The notes: generated by a model not told the origin, from the sequence alone. 42,184 bases of DNA from an uncultured Bacilli bacterium (GCA_947630585.1 CANRIE010000001.1:1-42184), one strand, 5' to 3'. Counted from the first letter of the stretch, positions 3,378 to 39,510 are shown. Numbers and translations are program-made.

Positions 3378-4583
3378 TCAAATTTCATCGATACTAATTT
3401 GCTTATCATGTTTTATTTCTTCCCAAGTCTTATTAGGATCAAAAATAGCTAAGAACACACTTATAATTCCCGTTACCATGAAAAGTGAGAACAGAAAAAT
3501 AGCTGGTAATAAAGGAATTATTTTCTTTTTATTTACGATACATAGGAAAAGTGATAAGACAACTGTTCCTAAATAAGATAGTAAAGTGAACCCAAGCATT
3601 ACTATTATATTATCTACAAGTATAATATTAAAAATGGTTGTTGTTGCAACTAACAATTGATAGATTGGTCCAAAAGCTAAGATAAAACTATCAATTGCAT
3701 GAAGATTATGATTTTTCTTGAATCCTACACCTAAATTTTTAACATATTTTTTTAAAACTTGTAAAGTTCCTAAATTCCATCTTTTTCTTTGTTTAATTGA
3801 AGGAATTAGGCTTGATACTTGTTCATCATAAAAAATTGCTTTTTGAGCAAACCCAATTTTAACGTTATGAATGGCACAGATAGCAGTTAATTCAATATCT
3901 TCTGTTAAAGTAGTTGCTTGATAATTAATTTTTTCTAAAGCTGACTTAGTAATAGCATACCCCGTTCCATTTATATTAGCACTTGCTCCTATTCTTTCTC
4001 TTGTATCATATAAAAATATATGTTGTAAATAATATGAAATCGCATAACTACCACTTAACCAATTTTCATATAAGTTTTTGCAATCACGGAATCCTTCTAC
4101 AACTTCATACCCATTTAATAATTTATTATTCATTTCTTTTAAGAAGTTCTTATCAACAACATTATCAGCATCAAAGATTACATAAGTATCAAAAGATTTA
4201 TCATTTTTAAATTCTTTATAAACATAGTTTAAAACATCACCCTTCGATTTAACATTACCTTTGATATCTAAAACTAAAGCCCCATGTTTTAAACTAATCT
4301 CTCTTGTTTTATCCGTACAGCTATTCGGAACAACATAAATATCATACATGTCTTTAGGATAATCTTGACGCTTTAAACTATCAATTAAATTAGGAATAAC
4401 TATTTCTTCATTTCTTGCTGCAATAATAATTCTAAATTTATGTTTAGGTTTAAAAGTTTTTTCAATTCTCTTCTTCTTTAAAAGAGGTAATATTCCGAAG
4501 ATAAAGAAATAAAATCCATAGATAAACAATATAAAATTGATTATTAATAAAATAATTTTAATAATTAGCATACTTCTACTCAC
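3378..4583 (-). CDS. Membrane-embedded processive family-2 glycosyltransferase (IcaA/NodC/cellulose-synthase-like)
   Basis: N-terminal TM helix, a GT-A core (IIIAARNEE..., DxD in FDADNVVD), the Q(R/Q)xRW motif (QRKRW) and C-terminal TM helices. The GTG start overlaps the upstream stop (GTGA); an alternative ATG lies at 4571. Confidence 0.8.
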   Translation of the reverse strand: MSRSMLIIKIILLIINFILFIYGFYFFIFGILPLLKKKRIEKTFKPKHKFRIIIAARNEEIVIPNLIDSLKRQDYPKDMYDIYVVPNSCTDKTREISLKHGALVLDIKGNVKSKGDVLNYVYKEFKNDKSFDTYVIFDADNVVDKNFLKEMNNKLLNGYEVVEGFRDCKNLYENWLSGSYAISYYLQHIFLYDTRERIGASANINGTGYAITKSALEKINYQATTLTEDIELTAICAIHNVKIGFAQKAIFYDEQVSSLIPSIKQRKRWNLGTLQVLKKYVKNLGVGFKKNHNLHAIDSFILAFGPIYQLLVATTTIFNIILVDNIIVMLGFTLLSYLGTVVLSLFLCIVNKKKIIPLLPAIFLFSLFMVTGIISVFLAIFDPNKTWEEIKHDKQISIDEI

Positions 4584-5968
4584 TTTCTAAATTTCTTTAA
4601 AATCATTTTAATATATTTTTTATTTAAATAATAAGTATAAAAGATAGCAACTCCAAGTCCTACTAATATTAACCATAAATTCTTAGTATAGTATAATAAA
4701 GTTACTAATATAAGAACAAACATATTTAAAAATAAGTAATCATCTTTTTTTAAAGTAATATATTTTCTTAATTTATAATTTCTATATATAAAGATAACAA
4801 AATAAGATATTAAAGTTGCAAAAACAGTTGCATATAAACCAATATATCTAATTAAGATAAATCCAACAACTAAGTTAATTATAGTTGAAACAATCGTTGT
4901 TTTAGCAAGAATTTTAGTATCTTTATAAGCTGAGAAGATACCACTACAGAAATTTGACATATTAGAAAGATAGACAGATATTACCATAATTGGTATATAG
5001 AAATAAGCTTCCCGATAAGCATTTTTAATTAGTAAATTAAAGATAAATGGAAGGCCTGCAATAATTAAAATTGAAACACATATTAATAAATGTTTAAGAT
5101 CAATATAAACACTATTGTAAAAATCATCTTTGTCTTTATCATTAACAACTTTACTTGCTGATTCTTTCCAAGACAAATTAAAATAACTATAACAAGTATT
5201 AATTATTGTTGGAAACCTATTACCAACTGAGTAAATCCCGTTTTTCCCTTCACCTAGATAATGAATGATTAAAAATCTATCAGTTAAGGCAATCGCATTC
5301 CACGAAATACTATTAGGAACAAGTGGCCATGAGTATTTAACCATTTCTTTAATTTTCTTTTTATTTAAATATTTGAATTTAACAAGTTTATGCATTTTTA
5401 ACTTAAATAAAAGCCAAATTGAAACTGCACTATTAGCAATTATATAAGAAATAAATAAACTAACAAGTCCCATTTTAAAAACAACAATAAGTAATATATT
5501 TAAACCAATATTAAAGAAACTTGATAAGAAACAAAAAATTGAATATATTTTAAATTTTCCCATTCCTCTTGCAGATGATCCTGCTAAAGCAGAAAGAAGG
5601 CTTGCTAAAATATAGAAAATTAAATAAATGGTATAAGGATAATCTACAATTACTCCAACAATTAGAATTAAAATACTCCAAATAAGAAAACTTACTAAAG
5701 AAAATATGGTTGTAACCGAGAATACTTCACCCTTTTCATGGTCTTTTTTAGCATCAATTAAAAATCTAAACATTCCTTCATCCATAAGTAAAGTTACACA
5801 TGGTATTAAAAAAATAGAAATGGTATTTAAAAAATCATAAGCCCCATATTCACTAGTTGTTAGCATACTTGTATATAAAGGTAGTAATAAAAAACTAACT
5901 AGTTGTGTACTGAATTTACCAATTGAAATAATTAAGGTATTTTTAATAAGTTCTTTTTTCTGATTCAT
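4580..5968 (-). CDS. Polysaccharide biosynthesis protein / oligosaccharide flippase (MOP/Wzx family)
   Basis: A 462-aa protein of about 12-14 TM helices with the typical N-terminus LIKNTLIISIGKFSTQLVSFLLLPLYT. It overlaps the downstream GT2 gene by 4 nt. Confidence 0.75.
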   Translation of the reverse strand: MNQKKELIKNTLIISIGKFSTQLVSFLLLPLYTSMLTTSEYGAYDFLNTISIFLIPCVTLLMDEGMFRFLIDAKKDHEKGEVFSVTTIFSLVSFLIWSILILIVGVIVDYPYTIYLIFYILASLLSALAGSSARGMGKFKIYSIFCFLSSFFNIGLNILLIVVFKMGLVSLFISYIIANSAVSIWLLFKLKMHKLVKFKYLNKKKIKEMVKYSWPLVPNSISWNAIALTDRFLIIHYLGEGKNGIYSVGNRFPTIINTCYSYFNLSWKESASKVVNDKDKDDFYNSVYIDLKHLLICVSILIIAGLPFIFNLLIKNAYREAYFYIPIMVISVYLSNMSNFCSGIFSAYKDTKILAKTTIVSTIINLVVGFILIRYIGLYATVFATLISYFVIFIYRNYKLRKYITLKKDDYLFLNMFVLILVTLLYYTKNLWLILVGLGVAIFYTYYLNKKYIKMILKKFRK

Positions 5969-5986
5969 TTTATCACACTCTACGAT

Positions 5987-6015
5987 AGTATATCATGTAA
6001 TAGCCAAGATGTAAA
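5987..6015 (-). promoter_or_regulatory. Sigma-A-type promoter for the flippase-GT2-ATPase gene string
   Basis: Minus strand: -35 TTTACA (6015-6010), 17-nt spacer, extended -10 TGaTATACT (-10 hexamer 5992-5987). Confidence 0.45.
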
Positions 6016-6044
6016 TTAGAAAATGAAAAATTGCAGTTAACTAC

Positions 6045-6072
6045 TTGAATTTCTAGTTAAAAATTAGTATAA
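6045..6072 (+). promoter_or_regulatory. Near-consensus promoter for the small ORF at 6088
   Basis: -35 TTGAAT (6045-6050), 16-nt spacer, -10 TATAAT (6067-6072). Confidence 0.5.
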
Positions 6073-6087
6073 TTTAATTGAGGTGTT

Positions 6088-6174
6088 TATGAAAAAGAAA
6101 ACGGTGAAGATAGTAACATCAATTTTGTTATTAATCATGATTGCATCATTTATTTGTGGTCTTATTTATCTATA
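6088..6174 (+). CDS. Unlisted 28-aa hydrophobic peptide (MKKKTVKIVTSILLLIMIASFICGLIYL)
   Basis: It has its own promoter, an SD (GAGGTG) 4 nt (TTT + A) before the ATG, a single predicted TM helix after a KKK N-terminus, and the terminator hairpin starts 7 nt after the stop. It is below the ORF-track length cut-off. Confidence 0.45.
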
Positions 6175-6209
6175 AAAAAAAACTGAAATTAATCAGTTAT
6201 TTTTTTTAG
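6173..6209. terminator. Bidirectional rho-independent terminator (sORF on +, topA on -)
   Basis: AACTGA-AATTAA-TCAGTT hairpin (6181-6198) flanked by an A8 run upstream and ATTTTTTTT downstream. Confidence 0.55.
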
Positions 6210-8233
6210 TCTTCTTTTGTAAATCCGCATTTAGAACATTTAATATCTCCATTTTTTTCAACCATCATTTCCCCACACTTTGGACATTTTTCACCTGTTG
6301 GTTTGTCCCAATAAGCAGTTTTACATTTCGGATAATTATTGCAACCATAGAACACTTTTCCTTTTTTACTATGTTTTTCAACAATTTTTCCAGAACAATT
6401 AGGGCAATCAATTATTTCAATCGTTTCATGTTCTTCTTTTTTTATGTATTTGCAATTTGGATAATCACTGCAAGCAATAAATTCCCCGTATCTTCCTTTT
6501 CGAACTACTAAAGGACTGCCACATTCCGGACATAACTCCCCAGTTTCTTCTGGTTTTTCTTTTTCCATTCCTTGGAAAGCTTTTTTTAAAGTATCATCAA
6601 AAACTTCATAGAATTTGGTTAATACATCAAGATTATTTATTTTACCATTTGCAATTTCATCTAAATCATTTTCCATATTAGCTGTATATTTAACATTAAT
6701 GATATTATTAAAATATTCTTGTAATCTATCAGTTACTTGGAATCCTACATCAGTTGGCACGAATTTCTTATCTTCGATGTTAACATATCCTCGGTCTTTA
6801 ATATTTGACATAATTGTTGCATAAGTTGATGGTCTACCTATTCCTAATTCTTCCATTTCATGAATAAGTCTTGCTTCTGTATATCTTGGTTTTGGTTTCG
6901 TGAAATGTTGTTCATAGATAATATCTTCACTTGTAATTACTTTATTTAAATATTCTGATAAATCAGGTAGAATTGTATCTTTAGTATCTTCAAACTCCGA
7001 ATAAACTTTTAAGTAACCATCGAAAGTGACAACAGAACCTGTTGATTTAAATTTATAATCATTGTTATCAAGAATAATTGTTGTTGCAAGTGTTTTAGCA
7101 TCAGCCATAAGAGATGCTAAAGTTCGTTTATAAATTAAATTATATAACTTGTATTCGTCTGCTGTTAAAAATTTCTTTAAACTTTCAGGAGTTCTCATGA
7201 TACTTGTCGGTCTAATACCTTCATGAGCATCTTGAACATTTTCAGTTTTCTTACTTTTTTTAACATAACCAATATAATCTTTGCCAAAATTATCTTCGAT
7301 ATAATGGAAAGTACTGCCAACAAACTCCTCACTTAATCTAATTGAATCGGTACGCATATAAGTAATTAAACCAACTGTCTCGGTTCCAATATCAATACCT
7401 TCATACATCTTTTGAGCAAGGCTCATCGTTTTTTTAGCATTAAAGTTAAGTTTAGTTGAAGCTTCTTGTTGCAAAGTTGAAGTTGTAAATGGGAACTTAC
7501 TAGCTCGATTTTTATTTTTAGAATCAATACTTTCGACTTTAAAATCTTTGGCTAATTTTTCTAAAATACTATTTACATCATCTAAACTTTTAATTTCAAT
7601 ATCTTTATCTTGAAACTTAAATAAATCTGAATCAAAATCTTTAAATTTAGCTGTAATAGTATAATACTCTTCACTTACAAAGGCTTGAATTTCTCTTTCT
7701 CTATCAACGATTAATTTTAAAGCAACACTTTGAACCCTTCCAGCACTTGTACCACTTGTCTTTGACTGCATTAATTTACTTAATCTAAACCCAATTATTC
7801 TATCTAAAAATCTTCTTGTTTCCTGGCTTTTAACTAAATTATAATCAATCTTTCTAGGATTCTTAATCCCTTCTAAAACTTTATCTTTAGTAATTTCATA
7901 AAATAAAACTCGGTCATACTTATCATCTTTAATTTTAAGGGTATCATATAAATGCCATGATATAGCTTCCCCTTCACGGTCGGGGTCAGTTGCAAGATAT
8001 ATATGATCAGCATCTTTAACTAATTTCTTTAATTCATTTATAATCTTGTTTTTCCCTTTAATAGCAACATAATTTGGTTTAAAACCATTATCTATATCAA
8101 TACCTAGTCCATATTTACCTGTTGTTGCTAAATCTCTAATATGGCCTATGGAACTTACTACTTTATAATTTTTTCCAAGGTATTTTTCAATTGTTTTACT
8201 TTTAGCTGGTGATTCCACTATAACTAAATCCAT
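6206..8233 (-). CDS. topA: DNA topoisomerase I
   Basis: The Toprim N-terminus MDLVIVESPAKSKTIEKYLG, a type IA core (tyrosine context RPSTYA-like GRPSTYATI) and three C-terminal CxxC...CxxC zinc ribbons. I prefer the ATG at 8233 (SD GGAG upstream) to the track start at 8248. Confidence 0.93.
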   Translation of the reverse strand: MDLVIVESPAKSKTIEKYLGKNYKVVSSIGHIRDLATTGKYGLGIDIDNGFKPNYVAIKGKNKIINELKKLVKDADHIYLATDPDREGEAISWHLYDTLKIKDDKYDRVLFYEITKDKVLEGIKNPRKIDYNLVKSQETRRFLDRIIGFRLSKLMQSKTSGTSAGRVQSVALKLIVDREREIQAFVSEEYYTITAKFKDFDSDLFKFQDKDIEIKSLDDVNSILEKLAKDFKVESIDSKNKNRASKFPFTTSTLQQEASTKLNFNAKKTMSLAQKMYEGIDIGTETVGLITYMRTDSIRLSEEFVGSTFHYIEDNFGKDYIGYVKKSKKTENVQDAHEGIRPTSIMRTPESLKKFLTADEYKLYNLIYKRTLASLMADAKTLATTIILDNNDYKFKSTGSVVTFDGYLKVYSEFEDTKDTILPDLSEYLNKVITSEDIIYEQHFTKPKPRYTEARLIHEMEELGIGRPSTYATIMSNIKDRGYVNIEDKKFVPTDVGFQVTDRLQEYFNNIINVKYTANMENDLDEIANGKINNLDVLTKFYEVFDDTLKKAFQGMEKEKPEETGELCPECGSPLVVRKGRYGEFIACSDYPNCKYIKKEEHETIEIIDCPNCSGKIVEKHSKKGKVFYGCNNYPKCKTAYWDKPTGEKCPKCGEMMVEKNGDIKCSKCGFTKED

Positions 8234-30742: not shown

Positions 30743-32807
30743 AAATCATTCCTTTCTGGACTAAGATAAATCTATTATATAAATCTTGATTATTAAACCT
30801 ATGACTTATAACAATAATTGTTTTATCATTTAAATACTTAAATATAGCATCGAGTATCATTCTTTCCGCCTTAATATCTAAAGCACTTAACGCTTCATCA
30901 AATATATAAATATCACTTTTTTTAAGTAAAGCCCTTGCAAGAATTACTCTTTGACGTTCTCCTCCTGATAAGTTTCCGCCATCATTTTCTAAAGTCATAT
31001 TATCTTTTAAAATACTTCTTTCAATTATTTTATCAATTCCAAGTAAAGAAATAATTTTTAAATAATCATCGTAACTTGCATTAGCCCCAAGCATAATATT
31101 ATTATATAAGGTATCTGTAAATAAAACTTCATCTTGAGATACATAGGTAATCTTTTTTCTAATATCTTTTAAGTTATAGTTATAAACCTTTCGATCATCA
31201 ATTAGAATTTCCCCTTCATAATTATCAATGTATCTTGTAATTAGTTTCATTAAAGTAGATTTCCCACCACCTGACGTGCCATATAGTAATACTTTATCTC
31301 GTGCTTTTATTTCTAAACTTGGACACTTAATAATTTCATCAATCCCATTATAAGAATATTTTAAATCGGTTATCTTAATATTTCCAAATAAATGATAACC
31401 TGTAACTTTAGGATCGAGACTTAAACTCTCACTTTCAATATTTAATAATTCTTTAATTCTTGTAAATGAAACACTAGCTTCTTTAATTAATATTTGTAAA
31501 CCACAAATATTAGTTATAGGACTAAAATAATAACTAAGTAAACTATTAAATACTAGTAACTTTGATAAAACTAAATTGCCAGCAATTACTTCTTTAATCC
31601 CAACATAAATAATAACTAATAAACCAATTCCATAAACAATCTCTTTAAAGAAATTTTCAATATAAAAGTGATGATATAAATTAAAACTTTTATCAAGAAA
31701 TTTATCAAACTTATAACTTAATTTATCTCCTAAGTTATCTTCAATTTGCATTCCTTTAACAGTATTAATTGATGTTAATGATTCAATTAAATGATTATCA
31801 ACATCAGTTTCCATTTCTTTCATATCTTTTATTTTAGTATCCAAAAAACTATTATAAAATAAGATAATAAAGACATAAATAACTGTAATTATAAATGTAA
31901 TAAAAGCTAACTTTGAACTAATATTAGAAAGACAAATAAATATTAATATAAGTAAAACTAAATCAATTGCTAAAGTTACAAACACTTTACTAATTACATC
32001 GCGAATTTTAAAGACATCTCTTATTCTTGTTATAATATCGCCTTTTGTTCTATTTTTAAAATATAAATATGGAAGTCTTATGATATGGTTATATACTTCT
32101 TTAATTAAAGATTCATCTAGTTTATGATTAACATAATTTATTAAGTTATTCCGAAATAAATTAGTTAATTCTTTTAAGATAACAACAATTATTAGTAATA
32201 TTAATATATATAACATTGTCATTTTATTGTTATTACTAAATAAATCAATAAAGAATTGAAACTGATAAGATATTAGAATATTAGAAATAGTATAAACAAA
32301 CGAAAGAACAAAAAGTAGAATAAAGGTAAATTTAAATTTATTAATAATTGGAAATATTAAACTTAAGAAACTTTTTTCTTTAGCTTGTTTTAAAATTTCG
32401 GTTTTAGGCTTTAGGATAATATAAACATTAGTTGTTAGTTTATTCCAAGCGTCCATCCCATAAGACTTAAACCCTCCATCTGGATCCATGATGGTTATCG
32501 TTTTATCTTCTATTTTCGTGACAATTACAAAGTGGCCAAATTGTTTGTCAACTAAAATATGGGCAATTAAGGGAACGCTGTCTTTTAAATTAGAGTTTAA
32601 GATACCTTTTACAGCTTTTGCTTCAAATCCTAGTTTCTCGGATGCTGCAACTAATGAATAAACTGATACCCCTTCACTAGTAGTTTTGGTGATTTCCCTT
32701 AAATACTCACGAGTTACATATCCTCCATAATATTTCACTATTGAGATTAAACAGGAAACCCCACAATCTCTTAAATCAGTTTGCTTTGTATATGTTATTT
32801 TTCTCAT
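30732..32807 (-). CDS. Bacteriocin-processing ABC exporter with an N-terminal C39 peptidase domain (LagD/ComA/LcnC type), 691 aa
   Basis: C39 motifs are present: the catalytic Cys in QTDLRDCGVSC and His in FGHFVIVTKIEDKTITIMDP. There is a six-TM domain, Walker A GTSGGGKST, signature LSGGERQRV and Walker B IYIFDEALSALD. The ATG at 32807 follows SD GGAGGG; the track start at 32819 has none. Confidence 0.9.
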   Translation of the reverse strand: MRKITYTKQTDLRDCGVSCLISIVKYYGGYVTREYLREITKTTSEGVSVYSLVAASEKLGFEAKAVKGILNSNLKDSVPLIAHILVDKQFGHFVIVTKIEDKTITIMDPDGGFKSYGMDAWNKLTTNVYIILKPKTEILKQAKEKSFLSLIFPIINKFKFTFILLFVLSFVYTISNILISYQFQFFIDLFSNNNKMTMLYILILLIIVVILKELTNLFRNNLINYVNHKLDESLIKEVYNHIIRLPYLYFKNRTKGDIITRIRDVFKIRDVISKVFVTLAIDLVLLILIFICLSNISSKLAFITFIITVIYVFIILFYNSFLDTKIKDMKEMETDVDNHLIESLTSINTVKGMQIEDNLGDKLSYKFDKFLDKSFNLYHHFYIENFFKEIVYGIGLLVIIYVGIKEVIAGNLVLSKLLVFNSLLSYYFSPITNICGLQILIKEASVSFTRIKELLNIESESLSLDPKVTGYHLFGNIKITDLKYSYNGIDEIIKCPSLEIKARDKVLLYGTSGGGKSTLMKLITRYIDNYEGEILIDDRKVYNYNLKDIRKKITYVSQDEVLFTDTLYNNIMLGANASYDDYLKIISLLGIDKIIERSILKDNMTLENDGGNLSGGERQRVILARALLKKSDIYIFDEALSALDIKAERMILDAIFKYLNDKTIIVISHRFNNQDLYNRFILVQKGMIYEY

Positions 32808-32900
32808 TAGACCCTCCATATATAATATACACGAAAAAAAGTCGATTTTACCGAAAAATTTTTATTTTTTTTATTCCATATTTTATATATTTTTAAGACT

Positions 32901-32925
32901 AAAAAAAGGTGATATTTAATCACCT
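32901..32925 (-). terminator. Rho-independent terminator
   Basis: AGGTGAT-ATTTA-ATCACCT (32907-32925), followed on the minus strand by a T6 run. Confidence 0.55.
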
Positions 32926-32993
32926 ATATACATTTGATACACAATTTTTTCTTAATTTTGTATCTTATAAGAATTATTTTTCAAGTTTTTAAA

Positions 32994-33021
32994 GAAAAAA
33001 GATAGATAATTTTATCTATCT
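32994..33021 (-). terminator. Rho-independent terminator directly after the start-less ORF fragment
   Basis: AGATAGATAA/TTATCTATCT (33000-33021), followed on the minus strand by TTTTTT. The fragment's stop codon lies inside the stem. Confidence 0.55.
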
Positions 33022-33162
33022 AAAATTGCAACATGAACCTGGGTCAACATTACTTACTACATTTTCTTCACAGCAAGAATATTCAGGTCTATAAGTATGT
33101 TTGTAAATATGATGATTGATTATTCTAGTCCTAATTGGGCAAACATGAGATTGTTTCTTGAG
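33016..33162 (-). pseudogene. Start-less Cys-rich ORF fragment (48 codons), probable 3' remnant of a disrupted gene
   Basis: ...LKKQSHVCPIRTRIINHHIYKHTYRPEYSCCEENVVSNVDPGSCCNFR*. No ATG, GTG or TTG is in frame after the preceding TAA codons. It looks locally less AT-rich and ends in its own terminator. Confidence 0.3.
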
Positions 33163-33193
33163 TTAGTATTTTTATCTTAAAATTCCTGTTTTT

Positions 33194-33221
33194 GAATTGG
33201 AGAGACGCTTCTCTCCAATTC
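33194..33221. repeat. Palindrome GAATTGGAGAGA-CGCT-TCTCTCCAATTC, 17 nt beyond the DUF1016 stop
   Basis: A perfect 12-bp arm pair. It is related to the palindrome at 34278-34303. Confidence 0.85.
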
Positions 33222-33238
33222 AAAGCAACATTATTTTT

Positions 33239-34261
33239 TTATTCATTTTTATCATCATTGCTATTTAAAACTTTTTCTACTTCATTTATAAGTTGCTCTT
33301 TATCTGGAATATAATACGTATACGTTGATGCAAATATATTATTAGATAAGCCACCTAAAGCATATTCTAGTAAAACTTTATCTTTATCAGCACATAATAT
33401 TATTCCAACTGGTTTACCATCACCCTCACTATTTACATCTTTTTCATAATAATTTAAATACATATTCATTTGTCCTAAATTTTCAGCTTTCAACGAATTC
33501 ATTTTTAAATCTATTAAAACATACGATTTTAAATATTTATTATAGAAGACCATATCAACATAATAATCTGTATTATTTAAAGTTATCCGTTGCTGACTAC
33601 CCACAAACATAAAACCTTTGCCTAATTCTAGCAAAAAATCCTCAATATGTCTTATTAACTTATATTCCAAATCTTTTTCTAACAATGGTTTTTGTTCTTT
33701 TATTCCCAAAAACTCAAATACATAAGGTTGCTTAACTATATCACTTGGTTTTGAAATAATTTGACCTTTTTTTGATAATTCAATAACTTTTTCTTTATTG
33801 GATTTACCATCAGACAATAATAGCCTCTCAAATAATGAGGTGTCTAATTGGCGTCTAAGTTCTCTAACACTCCAATTTTCATTAATACACTCTTTTTCAT
33901 AAAAATTTCTTTTATCTTTATCTTGAATTATCATTAATTCTAAATAATGTGACCAAGATAATTTATCACTTAATTCTTCTAATTTTGGATAAGCCTTATA
34001 AAAAATTCTCATGTATTTTAAATTAGAAACTGAATATCCTTTTCCTAAATATTTTGTTAACTCTTTTGATAATTCTTTTAAAGTCTCTTGACCATATTCA
34101 AGTCTATTATTATATTCATTTTCATTTAAAACAATAATTTTTCCTATATTCCAATATACATAAACAATAGATTTGTTAATTTCTTGAGTTAAATTTATTC
34201 GAGTTTGATTTACTAACTTAGTTATTTCATTTATCATTTTATTATTTACTTTTTCTAACAT
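33239..34261 (-). CDS. DUF1016/YhcG-family PDDEXK nuclease
   Basis: The YhcG-type N-terminal region (VYVYWNIGKIIV...EYGQETLKELSKELTKYLGKGYSVSNLKYMRIFYKAYP) and a C-terminal PD-(D/E)xK core (YYVDMVFYN...VLIDLKMN). SD AGGGAGGA. Confidence 0.8.
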   Translation of the reverse strand: MLEKVNNKMINEITKLVNQTRINLTQEINKSIVYVYWNIGKIIVLNENEYNNRLEYGQETLKELSKELTKYLGKGYSVSNLKYMRIFYKAYPKLEELSDKLSWSHYLELMIIQDKDKRNFYEKECINENWSVRELRRQLDTSLFERLLLSDGKSNKEKVIELSKKGQIISKPSDIVKQPYVFEFLGIKEQKPLLEKDLEYKLIRHIEDFLLELGKGFMFVGSQQRITLNNTDYYVDMVFYNKYLKSYVLIDLKMNSLKAENLGQMNMYLNYYEKDVNSEGDGKPVGIILCADKDKVLLEYALGGLSNNIFASTYTYYIPDKEQLINEVEKVLNSNDDKNE

Positions 34262-34277
34262 TATTTTCCTCCCTATG

Positions 34278-34303
34278 AATTGGTCAGACGCGTCTGACCA
34301 ATT
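34278..34303. repeat. Perfect 26-bp palindrome AATTGGTCAGACG|CGTCTGACCAATT, 16 nt upstream of the DUF1016 start
   Basis: It shares the outer arms AATTGG...CCAATT and the inner AGA.G/CGTCT with 33194-33221. The differences are compensatory on both arms. Confidence 0.85.
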
Positions 34304-34374
34304 TAAAACAATATCACATTTATAGTTTTTACAATATTTTTAGTATTTTATCTATCGCATTTTTAACTTTTAAC

Positions 34375-34998
34375 TTATTCATCAATTCCATCAATACAAT
34401 TTTCATAAATCCAAGTTTTAATATCAGTCATATCATTTGTTTCATAATATTTTCTAAGCAAGGCTACATATTCATCTATTTTAGAAACTGGTACCATAAT
34501 TATCCCTTGACCATGTTTTATCATTTCATGGTTTGCAACTAAATTAGCAACTCTTTTATTTCCATCCTGAAACATTTGGTTTATTTGAAGCCAGCAAAAT
34601 ATACTAATAGATCTTTCTAAATCATTAGGAATTTTTAAGATATTTTTGAACTCAGTTTCATAATCACTTTCAATAGTCTTTGAAAGTTCAACATTTCCAT
34701 ATTTGCAAATCTCAAAATGAACTTTTTTGATAAAATCAATAGTTAAATCTTCTTGAATATTATTTAATACGTACTCCCAAGCATCAACTAAACCTTTTAA
34801 TTTAAACATATCAAGAACTGCAATTTTACCTGTATTAACATTATTAACAAAAGAATAGATATCTGCAAATGTTACTTTTATCCCTTCTAAAATAGCACTT
34901 TGATAGATATTATCAACTAATTTTCTTTTAGCAAAAAAGATATTATCTTTAATTTCCATGTTGTATTTATTTTTCACATAATTTGTCCTTTCTTTCAA
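34375..34998 (-). CDS. Fic/Doc (Fido)-like protein with a non-canonical active-site motif
   Basis: The C-terminal segment LQINQMFQDGNKRVANLVANHEMIKHG matches the Doc-type motif HxFxD(A/G)NKR, but Gln occupies the His position. The start is uncertain: TTG 34998, GTG 34977 with SD AAGGA, or ATG 34959. Confidence 0.5.
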   Translation of the reverse strand: MKERTNYVKNKYNMEIKDNIFFAKRKLVDNIYQSAILEGIKVTFADIYSFVNNVNTGKIAVLDMFKLKGLVDAWEYVLNNIQEDLTIDFIKKVHFEICKYGNVELSKTIESDYETEFKNILKIPNDLERSISIFCWLQINQMFQDGNKRVANLVANHEMIKHGQGIIMVPVSKIDEYVALLRKYYETNDMTDIKTWIYENCIDGIDE

Positions 34999-35088
34999 TT
35001 TGCTTTCATATATATATATTTTACCAAATTTTTCACAAAAAGTCTTTATTTTTTTAATATTTTTTCAAATTTATGCTGTTATCATAAA

Positions 35089-36603
35089 TCATTTAAAAGT
35101 TAATATAATATTTATTTCTTTATTTTCAGATATTTCTATTTTTTCAATTAAATTAGTAATTAAAATTCTTTCAAATACTTTAAAATTTAAAAAATCATCA
35201 ATATATTTATCAATTACTTGTAATTTATTATCACGATTATTTTCTTTATTTAATTTTAAATAATAATTAATTTTATCTTGATTATTCCTTAATTCCTCTT
35301 TCATTTTTAAGACAAGTCTTTCATATTGTTCAAGAGTAATAACTTGATTTAATTTATCAAGATAAATATTATCTAAATTTTCATTTATTCTTTTTATTTC
35401 TTGTTCTAATTTTTTTATTTCCAAGTTATAATCATCATCTTTTAAATCATTTAAAATATTATTTCTAATTTTATCTTTATTAACTTGCTTTAAGAATTTA
35501 GTTTTTAATAAACTAACAATAATTAATTCTAAATCATCATAGTTATTAGAGTGTGATGTGCAAAGTTTTTCTTTTCTATAGGTTCTAAAATAGTTACAAA
35601 TTGTATAACATCTATCGTCTTTCTTTCTTCTTGGAGTTACCGAAATTCTACTTGAGCACTCATGACAATACATCAAAGAATCTAATAAATGTTCTTCTTT
35701 TTTATCAAGCCTTGAAACATTTTTAGGTAACATTTTTAAAGTACTTTCAAATACACTTCTTTCTATAATTGCTTCATGAGTATTCTTAACTACAATAAAT
35801 TCATCCTCTTTATTTTTAACAACTTTCTTAATTTTATAATTTATTTTATTTCTTTTATTTTGAACTAAATCTCCAACATAAACTTGATTATGTAAAATCT
35901 CATTTATGGTTTTAGCATTCCAAGTATTATAATGAATAGTATTAATATTATCATAGTAAGACGATGGGGTTCTTATTTTTAAATTTGTTAACGCATCAGC
36001 AATTTGATAATAATTTAACCCATTAAGGGCTAAATTAAATATCTTTTTAATAACATTCGCTTGCTCTTTATTTATAACTAAATGATTCTTATTCTTTTTA
36101 TCTTTTGAGTATCCGAAGGGCGCTTTTGCACCAACGAACTTCCCTTCTTTCATCTTAGCCTTCAAACTTGATCTTATTTTTTTTGAAATATCCTTGGCAT
36201 AAAAATCATTCATGATTGCTTTAAAGGGTGCTATATCATTATTAGAATTATCAAGATAAGTATCTAAATTATCCGTTACTGAAATATATCTAATATTGTG
36301 TTCCGGAAAATATTTTTCAATTAATTCTCCCGTTTTTATATAATCTCTCCCTAACCTAGACATATCTTTAGTTATAACCATATTAATTTTTTTATCTTCA
36401 ATATCTTTAATTAATCTTTTAAAACTTGGTCTTTCAAAATTAGTTCCTGAATACCCATCATCTATATAAATATCATAAACAAAAATATTATTTTCTTTGG
36501 TATATTGAAGTAATAAACTTTTTTGATTCTTGATACTCTCACTTACCATCACCTTTATATCATCTTCTTTTGATAATCTAATATAAAGTCCGGCTTTATT
36601 CAT
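35089..36603 (-). CDS. Large serine recombinase (resolvase/invertase N-domain, recombinase domain, zinc ribbon, coiled coil), 504 aa
   Basis: GLYIRLSKEDD (catalytic-Ser context), DGYSGTNFERPSFKRLIKDIE, VITKDMSRLGRD, the Cys cluster CHECSSRISV...RCYTICNYF...CTSH, and a Lys/Glu-rich coiled-coil tail. Confidence 0.9.
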   Translation of the reverse strand: MNKAGLYIRLSKEDDIKVMVSESIKNQKSLLLQYTKENNIFVYDIYIDDGYSGTNFERPSFKRLIKDIEDKKINMVITKDMSRLGRDYIKTGELIEKYFPEHNIRYISVTDNLDTYLDNSNNDIAPFKAIMNDFYAKDISKKIRSSLKAKMKEGKFVGAKAPFGYSKDKKNKNHLVINKEQANVIKKIFNLALNGLNYYQIADALTNLKIRTPSSYYDNINTIHYNTWNAKTINEILHNQVYVGDLVQNKRNKINYKIKKVVKNKEDEFIVVKNTHEAIIERSVFESTLKMLPKNVSRLDKKEEHLLDSLMYCHECSSRISVTPRRKKDDRCYTICNYFRTYRKEKLCTSHSNNYDDLELIIVSLLKTKFLKQVNKDKIRNNILNDLKDDDYNLEIKKLEQEIKRINENLDNIYLDKLNQVITLEQYERLVLKMKEELRNNQDKINYYLKLNKENNRDNKLQVIDKYIDDFLNFKVFERILITNLIEKIEISENKEINIILTFK

Positions 36604-36745
36604 CTTTTATTCCTTTTATTTTTAAACTTAAAACTTTACTTATGATACTTTCTAAATCATTAGTACCAAATGTAAATTTAATTTTATATTTATTCATATT
36701 AATCATTAAATTATATGATAGGTATTAAAAAATAAAACGATGTTA

Positions 36746-38464
36746 TTATAATAATTCTTTTTTGTATAGTCTTTGATATATTTTATTATTTTTAATTAGA
36801 TTCTCATGCGTATCAAACCCTACTATTTTCCCATCATCAATAACTAAAATTTTATCACAGTCAATAACTGTTGTTAATCTATGAGCAATAATTAGAATAG
36901 TATAATCCTTACGTATTTTTCTAATTGAATCATGAATATAATCTTGAGTTTCATTATCTAAACTACTTGTTGCTTCATCAAGCATAATTATTTTAGAATT
37001 CTTAACTAAGGCTCTGGCAATAGCAAGGCGTTGCTTTAAACCACCTGATAAAATAACTCCATTTTCACCAACTAAAGTATCATATTTATCTTCTAAAGTA
37101 TCAATGTATTCATTTAATTTACATAGTTTGCATTTCTCTTCTATTTCTTCGTCAGTTATATCAGGATTAACAATTTTTAAATTTTCTTTTATAGACATAT
37201 TAAATATATAAGGATCTTGGGTAATTGTTGAAATATTCTCCCTAATTGAATCTTCCGTTAGCTCATTAAGACAAATATCATCTAAATAAATATATCCAGA
37301 CTTTGGATTATATAATTTATTAATTAAATTGAAAATAGTTGTTTTCCCGGCTCCACTTTTTCCAACAATTCCAATTGTTTCACCTGCTTTAACTTTAAAA
37401 TCAATTCCTTTTAAAACCTCATTTTTATCATAACTAAAGATAACATTCTTAAATTCAATATCTCCTTTAACTTCCTTTAATTTAATATTGCCATATACTT
37501 CTTTTAAATATTTCTCACCACTAATAACATCATATATTCTCTCAATTGATAGATTTACTTCTTTGTAATTTCTATAAATATTACCAATTTCTCCAACTAA
37601 GGAAATAACTCTATTTCTATACATATATAAAACTAACATATTAGCACCATCTAATAACCCATTTTTAATTAATACGATACATAAAATAATAAACAATAAT
37701 TCATATATATTTTGCAAAATATCTTCTAAAAACCACTCTCTTTCATCTCTTTTCATAGAATCATAATCAATTTTTTTAATTGCTCTTTGGTCTTTCAAAG
37801 TCTTTTTAATTAAAGTATTTTTTAAATTTAAAACTTTAATATCTTTTATCCCTCTTATAAGTTCATTAAAATTACTTGAATATTTTTCATACATTTCATT
37901 AGATTTCTTTCTTTCCCCTTCCCATCTTTTAGTTCTTCTTATATTTAGATAAAAGAAAATAAATGAGAAAACAACAAAATATAAACCTAAATAAATATTA
38001 ATATAAAATATATAAAGTAAAATACCAAATGAGGATAAAAAACCAATTAAATTATATCTTAAATAAGTGAAGATACTTGCTAAAGAAGAAGCTGCATTAT
38101 TAACTCTTTCAGCAAAGAAACCGGTTCCATTTTGATCAAAATTCTTAATTTCTAAATTAAATAATTCTCTTGATGCATCTTCTTTTATTTTTAACTCAAC
38201 ATCATCTTGAATTTTAACACTACTCATTTTATTAATATAAGAAATTAATTGATCAACTATTCCACATATTACAAGTAAAATTGAATAAAATAGTATCTTA
38301 TTAAAATCAACTTTCGTGATTGCTTCTAAGCTTTTTGCAGAAATCAAAGGATTTAACATATTTATTCCGGTTATTCCAAGTGATGTTATCAAATAAACTC
38401 CAATTAAAAATTTCTTTTCTTTAAAATAAACTAAAATTCTTTTATAATAATCCCTCTTTTTCAT
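36746..38464 (-). CDS. ABC exporter, fused permease-ATPase half-transporter (MsbA/MdlB type, no C39 domain)
   Basis: Six N-terminal TM helices, Walker A GKSGAGKTT, signature LSGGLKQRLAIARAL, Walker B IIMLDEATSSLD. SD AGGAGAG. Confidence 0.85.
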   Translation of the reverse strand: MKKRDYYKRILVYFKEKKFLIGVYLITSLGITGINMLNPLISAKSLEAITKVDFNKILFYSILLVICGIVDQLISYINKMSSVKIQDDVELKIKEDASRELFNLEIKNFDQNGTGFFAERVNNAASSLASIFTYLRYNLIGFLSSFGILLYIFYINIYLGLYFVVFSFIFFYLNIRRTKRWEGERKKSNEMYEKYSSNFNELIRGIKDIKVLNLKNTLIKKTLKDQRAIKKIDYDSMKRDEREWFLEDILQNIYELLFIILCIVLIKNGLLDGANMLVLYMYRNRVISLVGEIGNIYRNYKEVNLSIERIYDVISGEKYLKEVYGNIKLKEVKGDIEFKNVIFSYDKNEVLKGIDFKVKAGETIGIVGKSGAGKTTIFNLINKLYNPKSGYIYLDDICLNELTEDSIRENISTITQDPYIFNMSIKENLKIVNPDITDEEIEEKCKLCKLNEYIDTLEDKYDTLVGENGVILSGGLKQRLAIARALVKNSKIIMLDEATSSLDNETQDYIHDSIRKIRKDYTILIIAHRLTTVIDCDKILVIDDGKIVGFDTHENLIKNNKIYQRLYKKELL

Positions 38465-38520
38465 ACTTAAACTCTCCTAAATCAGTCATATTATACCTTA
38501 TAATAATAATTTAATCAATA

Positions 38521-38544
38521 ATAAAACTTATCAGTGAGATAAGT
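38521..38544 (-). terminator. Rho-independent terminator of the DUF308 gene
   Basis: ACTTATC-AGTGA-GATAAGT (38526-38544), followed on the minus strand by TTTTATTATT. It lies directly after the stop codon. Confidence 0.55.
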
Positions 38545-38545
38545 C

Positions 38546-39112
38546 CTATTTTCTATTTTCAAAATATTTTTCTATTTTTCTTATATTTCTATTAAATATA
38601 ATAGCTTCAACAATATCAATTATAGCGAATCCAGTTAACATATAACCAACCGTTGCAACTAATATTCCTTTAGTTAAAATTATAATTACACCAAGTAACA
38701 TCATTAAAATTGATAACAATAAACTAATTATTCCTAATTTTTTACTTACAAATAATAACTTACTAACTAAAGATAAATTTTTAATACCTTCATAAATAGC
38801 AATTAAACCAATTATAATTCTAATAATACTTTGGAATTCATTTTTAAAGAAAAGACAAAGTAACCCCATTATAATATTTAATATTCCATAAGATAAATCA
38901 TAGTTAAAAATATTATATTTACCATCAAACTTAATATAGTAATAAATTTTTAAAACTCCATTTAGAATTAAAAAACCACCTATAAAGTAACTTATAATAT
39001 TTAAAATATTCTTAGGAAATAATATCATTATAATTCCCATTATGATAATTAAAACTCCAATAAAGATATTTTCATAATTATATTGTTTTAATTCTTTCTC
39101 AATCATTTTCAT
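38546..39112 (-). CDS. HdeD/DUF308-like integral membrane protein
   Basis: A 188-aa protein of about six TM helices with repeated IIxxIxGxLxIxxGI-type segments. SD AGGAGGA. Confidence 0.6.
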   Translation of the reverse strand: MKMIEKELKQYNYENIFIGVLIIIMGIIMILFPKNILNIISYFIGGFLILNGVLKIYYYIKFDGKYNIFNYDLSYGILNIIMGLLCLFFKNEFQSIIRIIIGLIAIYEGIKNLSLVSKLLFVSKKLGIISLLLSILMMLLGVIIILTKGILVATVGYMLTGFAIIDIVEAIIFNRNIRKIEKYFENRK

Positions 39113-39189
39113 TTTTTTATCCTCCTAATAACATTATAACACTTTCATAAGATAATTAATAGATTATTTGCTATATCATACATAAATAC

Positions 39190-39414
39190 TCAATCATGAG
39201 GTACTTCATGCATGATTGTTCTATGAACACATCTTTCTTGCATTGGTTCAACAACTGGTTGATTGCATCCACCATTACTATTACCCATCATATTCATATT
39301 ATTATTGAAGTCATTAGTAACGTTAGTATCAATATCAATGTTGTTAGTCATATCATTTGCAAAAAAGTTATTATTTATATCGTTATCTCTTTCATAACAT
39401 CTTTCTTGAAACAT
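39190..39414 (-). CDS. Asn-rich 74-aa protein with a CotD-like C-terminal motif
   Basis: SD AGGAGGA. The C-terminus QPVVEPMQERCVHRTIMHEVPH resembles the P(I/V)VxP...C.H.T....VPH pattern of CotD-family spore coat proteins. There is an internal repeat: FQERCYER and MQERCVHR. Confidence 0.4.
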   Translation of the reverse strand: MFQERCYERDNDINNNFFANDMTNNIDIDTNVTNDFNNNMNMMGNSNGGCNQPVVEPMQERCVHRTIMHEVPHD

Positions 39415-39510
39415 AAAAATCCTCCTATCTACTTTTATAGTATGAGCAGAATATTTATTTGAAAAGTATATTCACCTAATAACATGAATATAATTTTTTT
39501 GGAGGAACTT

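Follow-up and report, generated by a model that had tools for sequence, protein, structure and literature searches.

Elements that split mother-cell genes and are excised at sporulation have been described in several spore-forming bacteria. They are moved by large serine recombinases (LSRs), may or may not be phage-derived, and include skin, SPbeta, vfbin, vrin, gin and yin (PMC5595907, PMC4191935, PMC6957869, PMC10747680). In Bacillus subtilis, skin interrupts sigK (recombinase SpoIVCA) and SPbeta interrupts spsM (SprA/SprB), while C. difficile carries skinCd (PMC4191935, PMC5499854, PMC5025042). The gin element splits gerE of Bacillus cereus ATCC10987 and relies on the LSR GirC and the recombination directionality factor (RDF) GirX (Abe et al. 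2017, PMC5595907). As a rule, elements that sit in mother-cell genes persist as rearrangement systems (PMC6957869). No report was found in the literature of such an element in a cotD-type gene. The locus considered here lies in a stretch of 42,184 nucleotides from an uncultured Bacilli bacterium (GCA_947630585.1 CANRIE010000001.1:1-42184), referred to as the window; its source genome is called G000. The window almost certainly contains a 6,051-bp LSR element that interrupts a CotD-like gene at a CA dinucleotide. The element could well behave like the skin/SPbeta/gin class of gene-intervening elements.

The anatomy of the locus emerges from a comparison of the surrounding 8.5 kb with 40 related genomes. 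A piece of approximately 155 bp (window 32991-33147) has 83-91% nucleotide identity to a single locus in nearly every genome of the genus and surpasses its neighbours in conservation. Window position 33147 is the exact start of the homology in each of the 20 loci retrieved. The reading frame in these relatives mostly continues upstream to give a protein of 108-117 aa, MFQERCYDR...EPMQERCVHRTIMHEVP/HVCPIRTRIINHHIYKHTYRPEYSCCEENVVSN..GSCCNFR. Consequently, the start-less fragment that an initial annotation, made from the window alone, had noted at 33016-33162 and taken for an insertion scar is real, and represents the 3' half of this gene (33016..33146; HVCPIRTRIINHHIYKHTYRPEYSCCEENVVSNVDPGSCCNFR and a stop, then a terminator hairpin). 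The element's genes, the two gene halves and the junctions all lie on the minus strand. When the genome is searched by tblastn with an intact homologue, amino acids 66-112 are covered by the 3' half, and a 5' half is found 6 kb away on the same strand (39166-39414). The 5' half proper (39197..39414; MFQERCYERDN...RTIMHEVP) is 86% identical to amino acids 1-80 of the intact homologue. In its integrated state it extends two codons into the element before reaching a stop, forming a 74-aa open reading frame (ORF) at 39190-39414. Joining the two halves in silico at CA gives a 115-aa ORF, MFQ...HEVPHVCP...CCNFR, which is in frame, collinear with intact homologues and 83-86% identical to them.

Alignment of same-genus genomes, a check that the initial annotation had proposed, also located the uninterrupted form of the locus. 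Thirteen relatives' loci align unbroken, running from the upstream tetratricopeptide repeat (TPR) gene and the 5' half (40582->39191) into the 3' half (33147->32991), and shorter flank matches bridge the gap in four more. Judged by the junction sequence, 18 same-genus genomes are uninterrupted, four (G000, G004, G012 and G017) are interrupted at the same position, and one, which is 89% complete, has no match. Three further genomes that were reached via the recombinase (G041, G042 and G043, rumen or gut metagenome-assembled genomes (MAGs) with the labels uncultured Bacilli or Erysipelotrichaceae) have their insertion at the same codon. On this alignment, the contiguous loci are empty attachment sites (attB), and they place the element, with little room for doubt, inside the CotD-like gene at approximately 33147-39197, 6,051 bp from core to core.

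LSRs typically use a 2-bp crossover and attP arms that form inverted repeats, and they leave no target duplication, a point on which the initial annotation's caveat was apt. The attL-type junction of the window element (39170..39225; host 5' arm, CA, element arm) contains the core CTCATG at 39195-39200 with CA at 39197-39198, and reads GAAGTACCT-CA-TGATTGAGTATTTATG on the gene strand. The attR-type junction (33120..33175; element arm, CA, host 3' arm) has the same core at 33144-33149 with CA at 33146-33147, and reads AAGAAACAATCT-CA-TGTTTGCCCAATTAGG. The reconstructed attB is thus ...CATGAAGTACCT-CA-TGTTTGCCCAATTAGG..., and the reconstructed attP is ...AAGAAACAATCT-CA-TGATTGAGTATTTATG.... Among seven attL/attR pairs from different genomes, CA is the only sequence always held in common, and it occupies the same codon position. 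Every reconstructed attP has imperfect inverted-repeat arms about CA (18/22 for the G041 arms GTCTACCATAAACGGACAAGGA and GTCTACCATAAGCGGGCAATCC), and the six remaining elements at the site likewise give an in-frame gene on precise in silico rejoining. The two junctions are also present in three further assemblies of the species (ERZ27249118, ERZ27249603 and ERZ27249329), on contigs that match at 99.9% identity or have the same gene order, and a 2-kb interior piece recurs in a Logan contig of run DRR848885 at 99.25% identity. An assembly artefact is ruled out as the origin of the junctions, as independent assemblies share them.

The target is presumably a spore-coat gene. The only consistent Pfam match of its family is Spore-coat_CotD, which reaches E<=0.01 in 26 of the 35 homologues, with 2e-5 as the best value. 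A conserved region upstream of the 5' half (39421..39478), kept in 18/18 aligned sequences, comprises a box AGGT(A/G)AATATAC and a -10-like CATAC(T/G)ATA ahead of the ribosome-binding site. The latter fits the CATAnnnTA form of mother-cell -10 boxes, and the region is tentatively assigned to a mother-cell sigma factor. In its codons, the split gene shows no apparent relaxation of constraint: the ratio of nonsynonymous to synonymous change (pN/pS) is 0.07 against the nearest intact orthologue (in G014), compared with 0.08-0.19 among intact genes. The host itself is a spore-forming, uncultured gut or rumen member of Bacilli, from a lineage with genomes of approximately 1.3-1.5 Mb. Its assembly (1.25 Mb, 25.9% GC, 83% complete) encodes the endospore-former markers Spo0A_C (141 bits), SpoIVA (361 bits) and SpoIIGA (140 bits), together with an alpha/beta-type small acid-soluble spore protein (70 bits).

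The recombinase (504 aa; 35089..36603) has the Pfam domains Resolvase (PF00239, 1.2e-23), Recombinase (PF07508, 5.9e-20) and Zn_ribbon_recom (PF13408, 1.2e-5), and its catalytic motifs YIRLS and KDMSRLGR are intact and align to those of TnpX. The closest solved structures are TnpX, through its catalytic domain (E=4e-24), and SprA/YokA. In the recombinase tree, enzymes from the CotD-like site form one clade (support 97/98), and those from a site in an ATPase gene, described below, form a sister clade (100/100). Choice of target is therefore a property of the clade. Immediately ahead of the recombinase lies a conserved small ORF of 33-36 aa (36596..36706; M(INM)NKYKIKFTFGTNDLESIISKVLSLKIKGIKDE), the stop of which overlaps the recombinase ATG. 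Each recombinase in the family has a homologous small ORF ahead of it (consensus MxKYKIxFxF..(L)..IFIKVLLKEL), and ORFs of the same pattern are also found before more distant LSRs (30-40% identity). Database clusters of the protein number 183 and are without exception annotated 'hypothetical'. No Pfam family was matched when 14 family members were scanned at E<=10, and a supposed likeness to the small transposon protein TnpW of Tn4451 was dropped, there being no such match in those scans. A Nucleic Acids Research 2025 paper on RDF prediction has nothing on this family. The small ORF is nominated, from position and conservation only, as a candidate RDF.

Elements that related recombinases have placed at the same site differ widely in size and content, from a conjugative element to small carriers of defence genes. 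The G017 element (7.8 kb) carries a complete DpnII-type restriction-modification system, with an endonuclease, a D12-class methylase and an N6_N4 methylase at L037 (G017:C72) 5691-8201, along with an HTH_36 protein and one of 523 aa with a weak match to PDC-S62. The G041 element (34.5 kb) encodes a type IV secretion system coupling protein, VirB4-like ATPases, a sortase with a SpaA/thioester adhesin, a single-stranded DNA-binding protein and an M23 peptidase, and by this gene content is a bona fide integrative and conjugative element (ICE). In G004, G042 and G043, 35-100 nt separate the end of the recombinase gene from the junction, and one or two cargo genes lie between recombinase and junction in the window, G017 and G041.

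A second LSR in the host genome (on G000:C109; 54% identical) has the same layout of small ORF and recombinase. It belongs to a sister element of approximately 3.9 kb (~3591-7498, locus L089), which encodes an HTH_3 protein, a 242-aa protein of unknown function, the small ORF and a 478-aa LSR. This element splits a P-type cation ATPase within its PEGLP motif, leaving ...VAVP/DDCFLL before a stop and ...AEGLPMMITL.... The same element is found at the same ATPase site in five congeners (G005, G008, G010, G011 and G014), and the ATPase is uninterrupted in at least 10 others. Every ATPase half recovered from the carriers is full-length and stop-free, with dN/dS of 0.07-0.15 at dS of 0.66-1.04. Among carriers, the ranking of LSR divergence follows that of ATPase divergence, and the five congeners are the genomes closest to G000 at a neighbouring ABC transporter. 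This pattern fits vertical inheritance of a split ATPase that would still be under selection, and argues that genes split by this recombinase family probably stay functional.

Taken together, these observations suggest the following model. A non-phage, non-conjugative element would have been inserted by its own LSR at CA within the CotD-like gene. The germ line would keep it integrated, together with its candidate defence and export cargo. The LSR, with a directionality factor for which the coupled small ORF is the candidate, would excise it precisely. Excision would most plausibly take place in the terminal mother cell at sporulation, where the coat gene would be rebuilt while the spore retains the element. 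The anatomy carries the high confidence given above; the reading as a whole, with developmental excision that rebuilds the gene, is the most likely one, at slightly better than even odds.

Several observations weigh against this developmental reading. Within the genus the insertion has a patchy distribution, and the five closest relatives lack it. It may have arisen recently, and intact halves would then carry little information. The window protein's CotD score of 17.5 bits is under the Pfam gathering cut-off of 22. Upstream of the gene no -35 is recognisable, the -35 region departing from the B. subtilis consensus for both sigma-E and sigma-K, and SpoIIID was not found in the 83%-complete host genome. 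The target of the sister clade is not obviously sporulation-specific, and choice of site may follow sequence (AGTACC...TTGyC) rather than function. This particular copy might also excise poorly, as its left att arm has approximately 11 extra bp between the distal and proximal motifs compared with the right arm and with relatives, and its LSR is basal in the cotD-site clade on a long branch (0.57 vs ~0.2). Lastly, only the integrated form has come to light. The host assembly contains no attB or attP sequence, a collection of 5.8 billion proteins holds no conspecific intact gene (the best intact homologue is 83-86% identical), and every conspecific junction-spanning contig that was found has the element in place. 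No conspecific empty site was found, exact look-up of the neighbouring TPR protein gave no match, and a degenerate pattern for the species' attB, attP, attL and attR had no match in metagenome contigs. An 18-nt attP pattern of the G041-43 ICE type proved too short, with at least 120 unrelated matches in metagenome contigs; 0/80 fetched loci extend to a full attP, and the sole low-GC locus among them (L131) is unrelated.

The main rival is that the element is a plain integrative island. It would be an ICE-derived mobilisable or decaying element sitting at its attB, which has knocked out a dispensable CotD-like gene and either leaves the chromosome solely for horizontal transfer or has ceased to do so. 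This explanation has a lesser but appreciable probability. It gains from the full ICE at the same site in G041, and from the near-identical att arms of G042 and G043, whose host genes have diverged, which points to recent horizontal spread. The atypical left arm and long-branch LSR of the window element, its absence from the five nearest relatives, and the lack of an excised form in the assembly, the protein collection and the conspecific contigs likewise speak for it. However, an island that had destroyed a dispensable gene sits poorly with two intact gene halves and a pN/pS of 0.07, and with an LSR and coupled small ORF that are both intact. The strong purifying selection on the sister element's split ATPase across six species and the general retention of elements in mother-cell genes as rearrangement systems (PMC6957869) also count against it.

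If the developmental reading is extended to the lineage, ICE-derived LSR mini-elements may have been domesticated as programmed DNA-rearrangement switches, two of them in a single genome, in a coat gene and in the PEGLP motif of an ATPase. The ATPase element would have co-diverged with its hosts across at least six species, defence genes would ride in the germ line and be shed only from the terminal mother cell, and the coupled protein of 30-60 aa would represent a new family of directionality factors. As a joint proposition this is speculative, and rather unlikely to hold in every part.

From the 5' junction inward, the element carries genes for a DUF308 protein, an ABC exporter, the small ORF, the LSR, a Fic-like protein and a DUF1016 nuclease. 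The first is a DUF308 (HdeD-like) membrane protein of 188 aa (38546..39112), followed by an MsbA-like exporter of 572 aa with fused transmembrane and nucleotide-binding domains (36746..38464). Beyond the LSR lie a 207-aa protein (34375..34998) and a nuclease with DUF1016_N and YhcG PDDEXK domains (33239..34261; Pfam 3.5e-55 and 2.4e-42), the latter matching the PADLOC candidate defence family PDC-S02 (1.6e-128). The initial annotation had described the last three of these genes; the nuclease and the 504-aa recombinase stand as described, while its Fic/Doc-like gene is only weakly Fic-like. The 207-aa protein matches Pfam Fic at E=0.004, below the cut-off, with QMFQDGNKR in place of HxFxxGNGR, and it also matches PADLOC PDC-S04 (9e-10) and phrog_11900 (3e-24), a family of unknown function. 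A 73%-identical homologue, together with its 70-nt upstream region, lies directly downstream of the intact CotD-like gene in L019 (G005:C23; 3147-3924). No recombinase is found near it; this gene either moves independently or is the remnant of an older element. Two related 26-nt palindromes bracket the DUF1016 gene, and the genome has no others of this form. One lies just downstream of that gene's stop (33195..33220; AATTGGAGAGACGCTTCTCTCCAATT), and the other between its ribosome-binding site and the upstream region (34278..34303; AATTGGTCAGACGCGTCTGACCAATT). On the gene strand no T-run follows either of them, which sets them apart from ordinary terminators. A sigma-70 promoter/terminator scan over the element performed no better than in shuffled sequence (67 vs 61 +/- 8).

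The window element contains no coupling protein, VirB4-type ATPase, relaxase, or mobilisation or conjugation gene, and comparison with Pfam and PHROG identified no phage structural, lysis or replication genes. A defective prophage remnant resembling B. subtilis skin is accordingly very improbable, even though the LSR matches the phrog_95 integrase and cargo proteins match PHROG moron or unknown-function families. Besides the missing phage genes, no close relative of the LSR was found among 2.9 million IMG/VR contigs, and the large element that shares the site is a conjugative rather than a viral one. A prophage origin was rejected on the first two of these grounds.

Least probable of all, and hardly tenable, is the structure that the initial annotation had put forward, in which a 3.45-kb element (33167-36633) is bounded by a 15-nt imperfect direct repeat and has a promoter-less recombinase at its edge. 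That annotation was correct in recognising an integrated, LSR-borne element, and the recombinase's closest solved catalytic domain is that of TnpX of Tn4451. The repeat copies are also present (TATTTTTATCTTAAAA at 33167-33182 on the plus strand and TATTTTTAAACTTAAAA at 36617-36633), and the gapped pattern occurs only in these two places in the 1.25-Mb assembly. However, the match is at chance level and is not a boundary. The best local alignment of the two intergenic zones scores 11, random AT-rich pairs of equal length from the same genome score 10.2 +/- 2.7, and 37% of random pairs score at least as high, which bears out the annotation's own caution about a 15-mer in AT-rich DNA. The left copy falls approximately 20 nt inside the true left junction, within the att arm, and the right copy is mid-element, inside the coding sequence of the conserved small ORF. 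Empty sites in relatives set the ends at 33147 and 39197, 2.56 kb beyond the proposed right end. The common core is CTCATG with crossover at CA, and what the homologous elements of six other genomes have in common is CA with inverted-repeat arms, not the repeat. The notion of an edge recombinase that needs read-in or a promoter assembled on a circular junction likewise falls away, because the LSR lies mid-element (its start at 36603 is 2.6 kb from the true end) behind a 142-bp intergenic region and the coupled small ORF. On the empty-site alignment and the split-gene halves, this specific model is refuted.

Two further features of the neighbourhood deserve mention. Synteny with relatives stops just past the terminator of the CotD-like gene (window <32990), and the adjoining two-peptide bacteriocin operon lies on other contigs in relatives (for example, C32 vs C34 in G014). 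The initial annotation had raised the alternative of a larger island that includes this operon; the operon falls outside the att sites, and by its placement is a separate variable region beyond the LSR element. A segment of approximately 130 bp (32804-32941), intergenic and upstream of a C39 peptidase/ABC transporter gene, has 88%-identical copies on C36 and C109 and weaker copies on C57, C44 and in other genomes of the genus, and may serve bacteriocin-type loci as a common regulatory region. Separately, five contigs (G045:C67 and C95, G012:C49 and C52, and G004:C53) stop at the split CotD-like gene's att core or no more than approximately 100-190 nt away from it. Such breaks are expected from an assembler if the sample mixes integrated with excised forms or contains alternative elements.

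The locus would extend the short list of gene-intervening elements in spore formers by a new target (a CotD-like gene), a new host lineage and a form that is non-phage, very small and a carrier of defence genes, and would tie these elements directly to ICEs through a shared attB. For one LSR clade, it also supplies seven attL/attR pairs from nature in which the crossover is pinned to CA, and the second clade comes with a defined attB of its own; such LSR/att sets are a resource for genome engineering. A widespread, unannotated small protein is nominated as a candidate directionality factor. For annotation, two apparent fragments in a MAG are halves of one gene, and probably not pseudogenes. 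The locus would be of still greater interest if the lineage-wide picture of two elements and the candidate directionality factor hold up.

Among known systems, the window element resembles Tn4451/Tn4453 in its recombinase, whose best match among solved sequences is the TnpX catalytic domain, and resembles the LSR-type ICEs and integrative mobilisable elements of Firmicutes in that a relative at the same attB is an ICE. With both groups it shares a 2-bp core crossover without target duplication. In contrast to them, it has no relaxase, mobilisation or conjugation genes and integrates into one specific ORF. In Tn4451, the tnpX promoter forms on the circular junction of the transposon, whereas the window recombinase is not at an edge and would not require a junction-formed promoter.

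As in skin and SPbeta, a gene is interrupted via an LSR; in those elements it is a mother-cell gene, and in the window it is presumably one. SprA (YokA) of SPbeta is among the best structural matches to the window enzyme, and in both elements a small gene, sprB in the case of SPbeta, lies immediately upstream of the recombinase gene. Unlike those elements, which are prophages or their remnants of 14-134 kb, the window element has no phage genes, and its small ORF has no detectable similarity to any known family. The gin element differs in its size and enzymes (28.6 kb and three recombinases, compared with 6.05 kb and one), and in that its excision and RDF have been demonstrated, where those of the window element are inferred. 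The window element also differs from gin in its CotD-like target, its uncultured, small-genome gut or rumen host and its cargo of candidate defence and export genes. In each case, a non-phage element splits a very small gene (a mother-cell sporulation gene for gin, presumably one for the window element), with an LSR, a short shared core and attP-type inverted repeats, and rejoining yields an in-frame gene.

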